64,000 nucleotides of DNA from Euglena gracilis (Eukaryota). How positions within the stretch are numbered: the stretch's first letter is position 1; every line of letters begins with the position of its first letter. The stretch covers positions 44,185,847 through 44,249,846 of the forward strand of contig CP154954.1 of the NCBI GenBank assembly GCA_039621445.1, read 5' to 3'. The translations under genes and the position numbers were made by a program. This document shows, in pieces, positions 11,575 through 61,711 of the stretch. The notes beneath the pieces are model-generated. The model saw only the letters and a program-made list of their open reading frames with translations. It ran no database searches and was not told the origin of the DNA.

Positions 11575-14500
11575 TTGTTCCGGGGGTGGGGGTGACGGGG
11601 GGCCAGGAGGGCCAGGCAGGCAGGCGGCGGGCCAGCCACGCTGGCAGGAAGCCCCACAGCCAGGTGGGGCGGTGCCGGGCGAGAGCGGCCACCTCCTCGG
11701 CCCATGCGGACTGCAGGGCGCTGCGCTCCGTCAGGGCGAGCTGCAGGAGGGCCTGGCGGGCGACGGCGACGCCAGGGCTGAGCGGAGCGCTGTGGGGGGG
11801 GGGGCGCTTCACTTCCACGTTGAGGCGGGGCCCATTCAGACCGAGACCCCGCTGACTCCCGGCCTGGTGCGGCAGAACGGGAGTGCCCGTCGGACACACC
11901 ACCGCTTTTCTTTTCCTTTCTTGTTTCCTTTTCTGGCTTTCGGGGGGGTCGACTAGGACTGGCTGAAAATGCCCCCCCCCCCCCCCCCCCTGCTGGAACT
12001 TGTCTGGAATCTTTTGCAAAAAAAAAGACTTTGATTTTGGGACAAGTGCCAGAGCGGCCGACGGGCGACTGGTTTTTGAAAAATGTCCCACCCATAAAAA
12101 GGTCGAAACATTCGCAAACCTGGAGCACCATTTGCAGACATCAACACCACAAACCCACACGTGGGCACCATCACAGGCTCTGGGTGTGTTCTTGGACGAT
12201 GCGCAACTCCGGTAAATACTGCTCGATGCGATTTCTGTTGCAACGCCTTGGCTCCATCATAATCCCCCCCCCTGACCAAGATTGCCACCAACATGCAAGG
12301 TTGTACGCTCCCCCTAACAACCATCCAAAAATGTCTCCCTCCAATGCCCCTCTTTGACCAATTGATGACCAAAGAAGCAGATTGTAAATTGGAATAACTC
12401 TCCCCAAGGTGCCTTGTAACAAAAAAAAAACCAAAAAAAAAAACAGGAAAGCGCGCCCCTGTTTAACCAATTTTCAAACACATTTTGCCAAGTTCAAGGT
12501 GAATGACGGACAAGACACAGATAAGGAAACAAGAAGAGGAAGAAGAAGACTACTGACGGCATATTCCATCATTGCAGTTGGATATATGATGACCCCATAT
12601 AAACGACACCGCATTTCTTGCCGGTGATTCCCCATCGGTATCCGGCGGGCCTTTGACCAGAACCATCTGGAGTCGTGGGGAGCATCCAGCAGGCACATTT
12701 CAGGAGGGATTTATTATTTGGCTTAGCTGGTGCGAACGGTGCGAATTGCACAACCGTTTTTTTTTGGCGGTTTTGACCACCCCCTAAAACGGCCCAAAAT
12801 TGTCCAGATTCACGAAATTTATTTGGGAGGGGTGTTTGGGCGAAATGCTCGACCTCAAAAAAAAGCACCCAAAATGCAATTTAAATAAATAAAAAATACA
12901 CAACTTCTGTAGTTTTGGCACTTTTGACGTTTTATTTGACGTTGAATTTGCCTCAATTTTGTTGTAGCGATGTGTCCCTTTCAGAGAGGGAAATTGAAGA
13001 TTTTCCACCCTGCTTGATTCCTTCACAGGCATGTGGCAGGGGGATGTGTGTGTGTGTGTGTGTATATATATATATATATACATGCATGCATACATGCATG
13101 CATGCATGCATGCATGCATGCATGCATGCATACATGCATACATACATACATACATACATACATACATGCATGCATGCATACATACATACATACATACATA
13201 CATACATACATACATACATACATACATACATACATACACACACACACACACATATATATATATATGGCAGCAGGATGCGTAATGGCGGGGGGGGGGGGGG
13301 GGGGACGCATTTCTGGGGGGTGGGCATGGCAGCTCCCAGGTTCGACTTTTCGGATTTTCAGTCCCGCGGTGCTGACAGGTAATCCCCGGAGATAAGGCCG
13401 AGATTTAGCCCCAAATTAAACCCCCCCAAATAAGAACCCCCCCCCAAAATGTGACCCCTCCTGGGCCGATCGAGCGAAAATCCAAAACAAGACCCCCCCA
13501 AAAAACAACACCCCCCCCCCCGACGGAGACAGTGTAAATTTTCCTTGAAGAATAATCAAAAACTCCAATGTGATACACAAAAAGATGATAAAATTTCATT
13601 TTTTTTTCAAATTTTGAAGCTCAAAAAAAAACATGCCAAATGTCAACTTACACCAATTTACACATGGCGCGAAGCGTAGAAGGAAAAAAAGTTTCAATGG
13701 TTTTGGGAACCTGTAAAATTATGGGGATTTCGGGCCCGGGTCGGCCAAGAAAAAAATCAAAGTACGACCACGCAACGGACCTGAAAATGAGACCCGGTTT
13801 TAATTTGGGGGGGGGGTTGAGACCTAAATTCAGGCTTTCATTTGACCTAAATCACACCTAACTGCCAAAAAAAGAACCGCAACCCTGACCCTAGCCAGAA
13901 TCTTGTCCCATCTCAGAAAAAAAAATACAAGGCTTCACAATAGCCGAAGGGAAAAGCATGGGGGTCCTAGAAAACCACCTCCCAAATTATTTACCCCCCT
14001 CCAAAATATCCTGGTATTTTGGATGCCGTTATAAATTTATGCACACACATAAAACACACACACACACATACATACATACATACATACATACATACATACA
14101 TACATACATACATACATATATATATATATATATATATATATATATATATATATATATATGGCAGCTGTATATATATGGCCCCCCGGGGGCATTGGCGGCC
14201 CGCGGGTCCGACTTCGGGGGCAGTCGGGGTTATTGGTTGGGATAGGGTCAGGGTTCCGACCGCGCTCCTGGCTGATCCCATTTTACGGACTTAGAAATAG
14301 TTAGGTCCCGATTCGGACCGAGTTGGGCAGAATTTCGGTTGGATTTTGGTAAAATTCTGAAGAACTACGACCCCAAAATCTTTCAAATGGGGACTAACGT
14401 CCTACCTAACTTGGTTCCTAAATTTGGCCAATTTCTGTTTCACCAATCCTGACATTATTCCGAAAAGTAAACGAAGTCCTCCCCAAATGCAACGAAATTC

Positions 14501-60900: not shown

Positions 60901-61711
60901 CCCCCCCAATTTTTGAAAATAAGCAACCCTTTCATTTCCGTCATCCTTGACTTTTTTGTTTAAAAAATAAAAATTACCTGAAATTTTCAGGGTGCCTCAA
61001 GAGAAACCCCCAAATTTTAGAAGCGCATTGTTTAAATTTGGGGTTTCAGCCGATGCGTTCGCAGGGCTGCTTCAATTTGGGTTTTGTCATATCGACCAAT
61101 GGATTGCTCAAATTCGGACCAAACATTTAACGGAAAAATGTGCCACTTGTTCAAATAATGGGAGGCTGGATGTTTGTTTCAGAGCGGAAATGCATGCCAC
61201 AACAGAAAAACGTCCCAAAAACGGCACAGGCTCAACTGTTTTGATTTTTTCCCTGAAACCAGGCTATCGTTGTTTGTTTAAATTTTCTTTGTTTTCGTAT
61301 TTTCTTACATTTCCCTTTCAATTTACCTCAAATTTGGGGGTTGCTTAAATTTGGAATTTTCACTGATTCCTGGGGGGTTGCTTAAATTTAGGTCAGCTGG
61401 TTCAGGCCCAAGGGTTTGGGGTTTCCCCCCCATAGGAATCCCCCCCTCAGAGTCCTGTCAATGTTGGTGGTGGGCAGTGGGGGGGGGGGGGGGCCTCACT
61501 CATTCGCTCATCTGGGTGGGTTGGAGGACCAGAAATATGCAAAATTACACACATCGTCGCACATTTCCAACACCACGAGATGCCCCATCCTCACGTCTGT
61601 CGCCCGGCTCTGACCCTCGCACGTCACTGGGCCCACCGCCGCCCCCAACTCCACCATCGGACCGAAGCCGTCGGACGACGGCTTTGGGCGTTGCGGGATC
61701 CCGGCGACCAT
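31000..61711 (-). CDS. Large multi-exon ankyrin-repeat protein with a low-complexity/coiled-coil C-terminal part (may be more than one gene)
   Basis: Exons: 61711-61616, 60542-60389 (LHWACSTGRSDLVVALLEGGA..DPHGWTALHWA), 59857-59724, 59161-about 59078, about 54380-54233 (RTPLHWACAAGH), 53283-53186, 52708-52609, about 52242-52059 (QDIQGNTPLHLAVLNGHVQCV). Less certain exons near 50800, 50400, 49400, 47600, then about 45472-45371, 44543-44436, 41826-41725 (coiled-coil-like), 39219-38800, and near 37500, 36700, 33650, 31800. Confidence 0.7.
31275..31359. repeat. Tandem 11-mer (ACTTGAACGTG), about 8 copies
   Basis: Seen directly; no spacers. Confidence 0.95.
38522..38607. repeat. (TTG)n trinucleotide microsatellite
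   Basis: Seen directly. Other simple repeats: (TTC)n 44775-44860, (CAA)n about 46980-47440 and 47802-47932, (TC)n 62984-63102. Confidence 0.95.
39257..40816. mobile_element. Non-autonomous TIR element, no TSD detected
   Basis: TIR CAGGGCGGTCC(T/G)TAAG (15/16 match). Interior blocks 39350-39710 and 40390-40720 match each other and about 21010-21500; the same terminus GGACCGCCCTG is at 22478-22488. Confidence 0.75.
41995..42457. mobile_element. 463-bp hAT-like MITE inserted in a G run of another repeat
   Basis: Perfect 19-bp TIR CAGGGATGGATGGGAAGCC with G8 on both sides; TIR resembles that of 17048-20048. Confidence 0.9.
52330..53619. mobile_element. hAT-like element whose ends enclose two predicted host exons
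   Basis: TIR CAGGCACCTA(T/C)GG(T/C)C; perfect TSD CCTGGGGG at 52322-52329 and 53620-53627; (CCCTGGTCGG)n arrays in both arms; an inner CAAGCACC/GGTGCTTG end pair at 52498 and 53422. Confidence 0.85.
53284..54232 (-). other. Non-conventional intron in the ankyrin gene
   Basis: GCG C|AGT-CAGCATTTGG ... CCATACTGCTG-GGTAC|AC CCT; in-frame join. Confidence 0.65.
57321..58827. mobile_element. Nested 1.5-kb hAT-like element carrying a minisatellite
   Basis: TIR CAAGCAC(C)TCTG; perfect TSD GTTGTGAC at 57313-57320 and 58828-58835; (CCAGCATCGC)n arrays near both ends. Confidence 0.9.
57655..58345. repeat. 18-bp minisatellite, consensus CATCTGCATCTTGTCCAG
   Basis: Several dozen degenerate tandem units seen directly. 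Confidence 0.92.
60543..61615 (-). other. Non-conventional intron in the ankyrin gene
   Basis: GAG|GGT-CAGAGCCGGG ... CCCGGCCCTG-GCGGG|GAC; arms match 9/10; in-frame join. Confidence 0.8.

Follow-up and report, generated by a model that had tools for sequence, protein, structure and literature searches.

The origin of the nonconventional introns of euglenids, and the machinery that removes them, are questions that have stood for decades. Such introns are reported to leave the transcript as circular RNA. Here we analyse a 64,000-nt stretch of the Euglena gracilis genome (assembly GCA_039621445.1, contig CP154954.1, positions 44,185,847 to 44,249,846; hereafter "the window"), which carries nonconventional introns in an M48 peptidase gene and in a Cfd1/NBP35-like gene, together with a 1,979-bp element, bounded by terminal inverted repeats (TIRs), located inside the M48 coding sequence. 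Among published descriptions, the introns come closest to the noncanonical splicing code, written 5'-N3CDG-/-CH'GN5-6|R and defined by knock-in mutagenesis in E. gracilis by Nomura et al. 2025 (PMC12501133). The code requires spacers of 3 nt on the 5' side and 5-6 nt on the 3' side, and is present in 61.2% of the nonconventional introns of E. agilis; synthetic 50-bp introns with nothing more than the signature and a 12-bp helix were spliced in E. gracilis (PMC12501133). The pairing of positions +4 to +6 with -8 to -6 dates from Milanowski et al. 2014 (PMC3935182). An origin of nonconventional introns from MITEs (miniature inverted-repeat transposable elements) has been proposed since 2014 (PMC3935182, PMC11282704, PMC12501133, PMC11170887), a year in which no transposable element was known from euglenids (PMC3935182), and the review PMC11282704 mentions "TSD-like" repeats.

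The geometry and its dissection by genome editing are already published (PMC12501133), and so is the idea of a MITE origin. In the available portions of this literature, no statement was found of an 8-bp duplication, of the sum 3+5=8, of hAT elements or of an exon-caught element for nonconventional introns; this result is provisional, and supplementary repeat data may bear on it. A 2024 genome paper (PMC11252322) makes no mention of hAT, TIR, MITE or intron.

The nonconventional introns of the window obey the published code, and we consider it probable that the termini of hAT-like elements residing in the window fit this code as well; these elements we propose as the source of the introns. The two spacers, N3 and N5, add up to exactly one 8-bp duplication. 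If an element enters an exon and is flanked by a duplication t1-t8, the code would remove t6-t8, the element, and t1-t5. The intron boundary would be offset outwards from the repeats, by 3 nt on one side and 5 nt on the other, the element would leave with one copy of the duplication, and splicing would give back the mRNA as it was before the insertion; the downstream purine of the code would then be t6. Later decay would take the duplication and the greater part of the repeat and spare what splicing needs, namely the closing C-G pairs, a remnant of the helix, the purine and the 3/5 spacing. We infer that old introns descend from such elements. The advance over the literature would lie in tying the splicing code, arithmetically and physically, to hAT-like elements of the window, on the basis of one clear insertion in an exon.

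A TIR element within the M48 coding sequence

The features that bear most directly on this proposal are the following.

Positions 11555 to 23821, minus strand: M48 gene (Zn-peptidase, HExxH), mapped by tblastn of P0121 and P0122, holding three of the introns discussed below and two TIR elements.
Positions 20736 to 22714, no strand assigned: non-autonomous TIR element of 1,979 bp, with TIRs matching at 11 of the first 12 and 16 of the first 17 positions and an 8/8 duplication, ACCGGGAC, at 20728-20735 and 22715-22722.
Positions 20731 to 22717, minus strand: predicted nonconventional intron consisting of N3, the element and N5, followed by G; its removal in silico restores frame and colinearity.

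The gene was reconstructed with two relatives, P0121 (397 aa) and P0122 (305 aa), which were obtained by a full HMMER search with the M48 catalytic exon and come from contigs of 1.3-1.6 kb, about the size of an mRNA. With these proteins, tblastn revealed a single minus-strand M48 gene running from 23821 to approx. 11555, which ruled out several separate small genes at this locus. Splicing in silico of seven exons yields 747 nt with no stop codon, whose product aligns with residues 45-294 of P0121 over 249 columns (52.2% identity, 1 gap residue) and with P0122 over 230 columns (48.7% identity, 3 gap residues). Word-index searches with the M48 segments 14621-14809 and 20193-20438, which covered longer proteins only, returned no protein; the blank for 14621-14809 is attributed to the word index, the relative P0121 (397 aa) having been found otherwise. 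A metagenome scan with P0121 gave no confirmed locus.

Both P0121 and P0122 read unbroken through the site of the insertion, which lies within a conserved stretch, and in the tblastn alignments to these proteins the three amino acids that the duplication encodes are found on both sides of the element. Removal of the element together with N3 and N5 keeps the frame, leaves no stop codon and is colinear with both relatives. If the element is cut out by itself, both copies of the duplication stay in place, and the 8 surplus bases give a length of 2 modulo 3, a frameshift and 3 stop codons. The terminal duplex of the element has a predicted energy of -23.8 kcal/mol. Taken as an intron, 20731-22717 begins with GGT and ends with CCC, and thus lacks the GT/GC-AG borders of a spliceosomal introner. 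On the proposed rule, this 1,979-bp copy in a conserved exon should leave the RNA at the 3/5 offsets. Splicing of the element is likely, judging from its sequence, since it carries the features that are sufficient in the synthetic 50-bp introns of E. gracilis (PMC12501133).

Related sequences occur elsewhere in the window. Two regions within 39341-40732, with undefined ends, are 74-87% identical to the interior of the 1,979-bp element and are probably older copies of its family. A further segment of 263 bp (43394-43656) has the first 8 TIR bases in common with it and lacks a duplication.

The 1,979-bp element is one of five elements that emerged from a scan of the window for TIRs. For the 243 CAG...CTG pairs whose TIRs match at 10 or more of 12 positions, flank identity over 8 bp was 0 in 30, 1 in 56, 2 in 73, 3 in 46, 4 in 22, 5 in 11, 6 in none, 7 in 1 and 8 in 4, i.e. 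a chance-like distribution up to 5/8 and then a jump to one pair with 7/8 and four with 8/8. In seven offset controls, near-perfect flank duplications numbered 0, 0, 0, 1, 0, 0 and 1. A scan free of any assumption on the triplet (TIR at least 11/12, duplication 8/8) gave four hits, all of which start with CAG. The 8-bp duplication is thus perfect in four of the five elements and 7/8 in the fifth; their TIRs span 12-19 bp to the first mismatch and begin with CAGGG in three cases and CAGGC in two. No coding capacity was seen in any of the five. The other four are:

Positions 17048 to 20048, no strand assigned: TIR element of 3,001 bp (TIR 12/12, duplication 7/8), nested in the M48 GT-AG intron 16893-20216.
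Positions 30159 to 30283, no strand assigned: MITE of 125 bp (TIR 12/12, duplication 8/8), lying in GT-AG intron 1 of the Cfd1/NBP35-like gene, at its bases +1 to +8.
Positions 41995 to 42457, no strand assigned: TIR element of 463 bp (TIR 12/12), whose duplication is the low-complexity octamer G8.
Positions 52330 to 53619, no strand assigned: TIR unit of 1,290 bp (TIR 11/12, duplication 8/8), overlapping the 3' part of the interval 53284-54232.

An 8-bp duplication together with CAG-type ends is the pattern of hAT transposons, general outside euglenids, and the TIR consensus of hAT is YARNG. On this structural basis alone, the elements would be non-autonomous members of the hAT superfamily. 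The interior of the 3,001-bp element is made up of a module of approx. 200 nt repeated in inverted copies, and its TIRs are 83% identical over 46 nt to those of the 463-bp element, a comparison confined to this 64-kb window. Since G8 occurs 255 times in the window, the duplication of the 463-bp element is weak evidence; the duplicated 8-mer of 52330-53619 occurs 18 times on the plus strand. The 125-bp MITE has doubled the 5' splice site of the intron in which it lies, one copy now standing on each side of it (30151-30291), and base 6 of its duplication is a pyrimidine on both strands, so that the nonconventional code would not remove it. The unit 52330-53619 has subterminal repeats (GGCCGACCAGG) and encloses exon-like stretches with conventional splice sites, and may be a composite or gene-fragment-carrying element. 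When an 18-nt degenerate TIR pattern was sought in metagenomes, 88 contigs were obtained, with a single match in each of the 80 listed and from unrelated habitats, and these were judged to be chance matches.

Geometry of the nonconventional introns

An earlier, sequence-only reading of the window had listed seven intervals as introns with the geometry N3-CAG...CTG-N5 followed by a purine and with in-frame joins throughout. The intervals make sense on the minus strand only, where this geometry is found in six of the seven; the interval 14810-15246 has CAT in place of CAG and hence a mismatch at the third pair. The first base after the interval is G in six cases and A in one. Five of the seven joins are borne out by the proteins of relatives, while 53284-54232 and 60543-61615 remain candidates. 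The protein-confirmed introns are three in the M48 gene, two in the Cfd1/NBP35-like gene, and one more in the latter, 28187-28759, that had not been listed.

Positions 11768 to 12185, minus strand: nonconventional intron, N3-CAG...CTG-N5|G, flank identity 3/8.
Positions 14810 to 15246, minus strand: nonconventional intron of the CAT...CTG variant, third pair mismatched, N5|G, flank identity 2/8.
Positions 15292 to 15699, minus strand: nonconventional intron, N3-CAG...CTG-N5|G, no slide ambiguity, flank identity 1/8.
Positions 24707 to 30355, minus strand: Cfd1/NBP35-like P-loop ATPase gene (Pfam PF10609), 10 exons with 6 GT-AG and 3 nonconventional introns.
Positions 24842 to 25156, minus strand: nonconventional intron, N3-CAG...CTG-N5|G, flank 8-mers 6/8, can be slid by -2 to +3; supported by tblastn and spliced-protein alignment.
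Positions 25382 to 25736, minus strand: nonconventional intron, N3-CAG...CTG-N5|G; supported by tblastn and spliced-protein alignment.
Positions 28187 to 28759, minus strand: nonconventional intron, N3-CAG...CTG-N5|G, flank identity 0/8, absent from the earlier list.

In the M48 gene, the join at 11768-12185 leaves 29 residues between two conserved landmarks, as in P0121; that at 14810-15246 yields ..AARA|GYDP.., as in both relatives; and that at 15292-15699 preserves the spacing of P0121 and P0122 around ..FER..|EYEAD... The Cfd1/NBP35-like gene was resolved with relatives P0001 and P0002 (279 aa), found by a search with one P-loop exon, and its ten exons were mapped by tblastn from 30355 down to 24707. 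The spliced product of 285 aa starts with Met and aligns without gaps both to P0001 (269 columns, 78.8% identity) and to P0002 (265 columns, 79.6% identity). Here the join at 25382-25736 restores the conserved Cys codon of a CPxC motif, and that at 28187-28759 yields ..LW|AIS.., matching P0002.

Protein colinearity resolves these junctions to the codon rather than the base, and slides that leave the mRNA unchanged, by 1 to 5 positions, are possible in six of the seven listed intervals, only 15292-15699 being unique. Conventional GT/GC-AG borders are ruled out, as none of the six homology-verified introns ends in AG; 25382-25736 starts with GC and ends with CC. CAG follows the 3-nt spacer in five of the six and in the 1,979-bp element, the CAT of 14810-15246 failing to fit CDG, and CTG-N5|G is present in all six and in the element. 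The full signature of CAG/CTG, 3/5 spacing and purine is thus carried by five of the six protein-verified introns; we estimate its probability by chance at approx. 1e-4 per donor/acceptor pair. With 10 or more of 11 arm positions paired, the pattern as such is common in the window (129 occurrences on the plus and 136 on the minus strand, compared to approx. 73 per strand in Markov-1 simulations), so that it is weak evidence where homology is lacking. By their sequence, the verified introns are ordinary members of the published Euglena nonconventional class.

The interior of intron 25382-25736 (positions 72-276) is 78-85% identical to modules within the 3,001-bp element. This dispersed module of approx. 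200 nt is present in at least five copies, in both orientations, in that element, with one at 25453-25657. As far as sequence goes, the shared module shows transposon-related content within the intron and not descent of the intron arms. Among the conventional introns of both genes, several (e.g. 25202-25292 and 15778-16685) end in polypyrimidine tracts that are C-rich rather than T-rich, as has been reported for E. gracilis (PMC11170887).

Three further intervals are candidates of lesser standing:

Positions 20407 to 20682, minus strand: tentative candidate nonconventional intron of the M48 gene, with 3+5|G geometry and GGGGG...CCCCC arms in place of CAG/CTG.
Positions 53284 to 54232, minus strand: doubtful candidate from the earlier list, with the geometry present, poorly pairing arms and an ankyrin repeat upstream (Pfam).
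Positions 60543 to 61615, minus strand: candidate from the earlier list, with arms paired at 10 of 11 positions and an ankyrin exon downstream (Pfam).

The first, between M48 exons 2b and 3, was obtained by enumerating frame-keeping joins with the spacing of the relatives; no GT-AG solution was found for it, and four slid alternatives encode a different residue. For the M48 intron of approx. 2.4 kb at about 12228-14700, not one of the 162 joins that keep the frame and agree with the relatives fits either GT-AG or the full code with purine, and a small additional exon within this region is possible. The 3' end of 53284-54232 lies within the duplication-bounded element 52330-53619, and a C-rich tract followed by a CAG acceptor, i.e. 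a good conventional acceptor, is found 17 nt downstream of the interval. Pfam searches of the exons flanking this interval and 60543-61615 returned Ank repeats only.

The window has a G+C content of approx. 50%, with long poly-G/C runs and (GT)n tracts. Judged by the geometry of its introns and by the relatives of its proteins, it reads as nuclear DNA of a euglenid. Long low-complexity tracts occupy 46900-47500 and 49500-51400; they are composed of CA/GT and trinucleotide repeats, and their AT and GC skew is extreme.

Arms, flanks and competing explanations

The sequence-only reading had further proposed that the arms differ in sequence between introns, that flanking 8-mers range from identical to unrecognisable in a graded age series, and that many TIR families were converted to introns in which only terminal pairing and spacing are kept. 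The first of these holds on comparison of the arms. Each arm pairs best with its own partner, with a mean duplex energy of -19.0 kcal/mol compared to -11.8 for cross pairs (P=0.0002, 20,000 permutations, 8 introns). Beyond CAG/CTG, pairing is weak in 11768-12185 and 15292-15699; in 14810-15246, 9 of 10 arm positions are paired, with one mismatch and G-U wobble counted as a pair. The flank identities of 8/8 at the 1,979-bp element and 6/8 at 24842-25156 were reproduced.

The age series itself was not supported. Across eight introns, with 28187-28759 included (0/8), flank identities are 3, 2, 1, 6, 3, 0, 4 and 5. Excess similarity over controls had been set beforehand as the test, and the mean of 3.0 compares to 2.86 for 56 cross pairs (permutation P=0.43). 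With offset controls, the eight introns total 24 identities compared to 19.6 +/- 3.05, a value reached by 9% of 64 offsets, and the six verified introns total 15 compared to 14.6, a value reached by 53%. Identity is concentrated at the two junction-adjacent positions (5 of the 8 introns each), which may reflect a pyrimidine|purine preference rather than relic duplications, and for flanks rich in G+C the 6/8 at 24842-25156 does not exceed what chance would give. Elements of intermediate age, with 7-9 of 12 TIR positions and a duplication of at least 7/8, are present in the numbers given by offset controls (23 compared to 8-35, 12 compared to 3-15, and 5 compared to 0-11). As the controls are matched, what the window holds is fresh elements on one side and fully eroded introns on the other, two classes and not a gradient. 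What stands of the proposed conversion is the presence of CAG...CTG elements with 8-bp duplications, one of them inserted in an exon, and of intron-specific pairing and constant spacing in spite of differing arms.

Several observations weigh against the derivation of these introns from hAT-like elements. The flanks of the eight old introns show identity at control level only, no class of intermediate age rises above the offset controls in the window, and the arm sequences found in old introns (CAGAG, CAGCG, CAGCA and others) are unlike those of the fresh TIR families (CAGGG, CAGGC); the window does not demonstrate descent of old introns from TIR elements. For two M48 introns, the positions that agree with the relatives give no fit to GT-AG or to the code. 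Two of the five duplications are G-rich 8-mers common in the window. Only one of the five fresh elements lies in coding sequence; GT-AG introns hold two, and the context of the other two is unclear. Reading by eye of the listed open reading frames of the window (at least 120 aa, or at least 130 aa for 30.7-43 kb) revealed no obvious transposase. Finally, the 1,979-bp element may be an unspliced, disabling insertion.

The first three of these observations are what would be expected if the nonconventional system and most of its introns arose independently of transposons, for example from conventional introns that gained terminal hairpins, with some transposon families fitting or having adapted to an existing code as late users and not as its source. 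A route of conversion between conventional and nonconventional introns has indeed been put forward by Milanowski et al. (PMC3935182), and in E. agilis direct repeats flank conventional as well as nonconventional introns, 84.4% of all introns (PMC12501133). We nevertheless regard such late adoption as unlikely. A joint match of the triplet and of 3+5=8 is improbable by chance, and the intron-specific helices resemble decayed TIRs. An 8-bp duplication and CAG termini are general traits of hAT transposons outside euglenids, which makes it more likely that the parameters of the code were copied from the transposon.

The other explanation sees the 1,979-bp element as an insertion of recent date that disrupts a single allele or a gene copy in decay, unspliced and silent on the origin of introns. 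It draws on the repeat-rich nature of Euglena genomes, on several such insertions in non-coding DNA of the window and on the failure of word-index searches with M48 exon segments to find a protein, but is very unlikely given that the remaining M48 gene is intact (249 aligned residues, no stop in seven exons), that the purine rule is satisfied on the transcribed strand and that the element has every feature shown to suffice for synthetic introns to be spliced in E. gracilis (PMC12501133).

An origin of the introns from hAT-like elements thus remains our preferred reading, and a concrete source class of this kind would explain why the measured spacers are 3 and 5 and why direct repeats are in excess at junctions, would predict which insertions are tolerated, and would make the question of origin testable with existing tools. 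It is tempting to extend it to euglenids at large. Nonconventional splicing would then be an RNA-level "precise excision" for hAT-like transposons, in which the 3/5 offsets remove one duplication and CAG/CTG are transposon termini, and most nonconventional introns (which make up more than 70% of E. agilis introns) would be decayed insertions of many such families; we consider this broader proposition as apt to prove wrong as right. If it were true, the "slidable" direct repeats at junctions would be remnants of duplications, the excised circle would contain the element and one duplication, and any new exon insertion with a purine at position 6 of its duplication would be born as an intron.

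Comparison with known systems

The introns described here share with the known Euglena nonconventional introns and their code the spacing, the CAG/CTG closing pairs, the purine, the helix inside CAG/CTG, and the mixture with GT-AG introns in the same genes. In the available portions of the papers on the code, the origin of these introns is said to "remain unclear", a MITE-like origin is suggested, and introns with "slidable" direct repeats are set aside (PMC12501133, PMC3935182). Unlike in those papers, TIR elements with 8-bp duplications are here tied to the code by 3+5=8, and one of them lies in coding sequence. The MITE-origin hypothesis, as set out in the available portions of PMC3935182 and PMC11282704, gives no duplication length, no superfamily and no exon-borne element.

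With non-autonomous hAT transposons of the Ac/Ds type, the elements of the window have in common the 8-bp duplication, short TIRs starting with CAG, internal repeats and a lack of coding capacity. On the other side, two of the five TIRs begin with CAGGC, and duplications of approx. 8 bp are also made by other superfamilies.

The nearest parallel in mode of action is offered by the introners of Micromonas, dinoflagellates and Fritillaria, in which, as proposed here, a TIR transposon that has entered an exon with its duplication is taken out of the transcript, part of what exact removal needs being supplied by the duplication (PMC11282704). According to the available portion of that review, introners are spliceosomal, sometimes in a relaxed form, with GT/AG-like sites partly derived from the duplication, whereas the element described here has no GT-AG borders and would follow a helix-plus-spacer rule. 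It works like an introner without being a member of that class. If the proposed derivation is true, there would be, beside spliceosomal introners, a second and mechanistically different genome-scale route from DNA transposons to introns.

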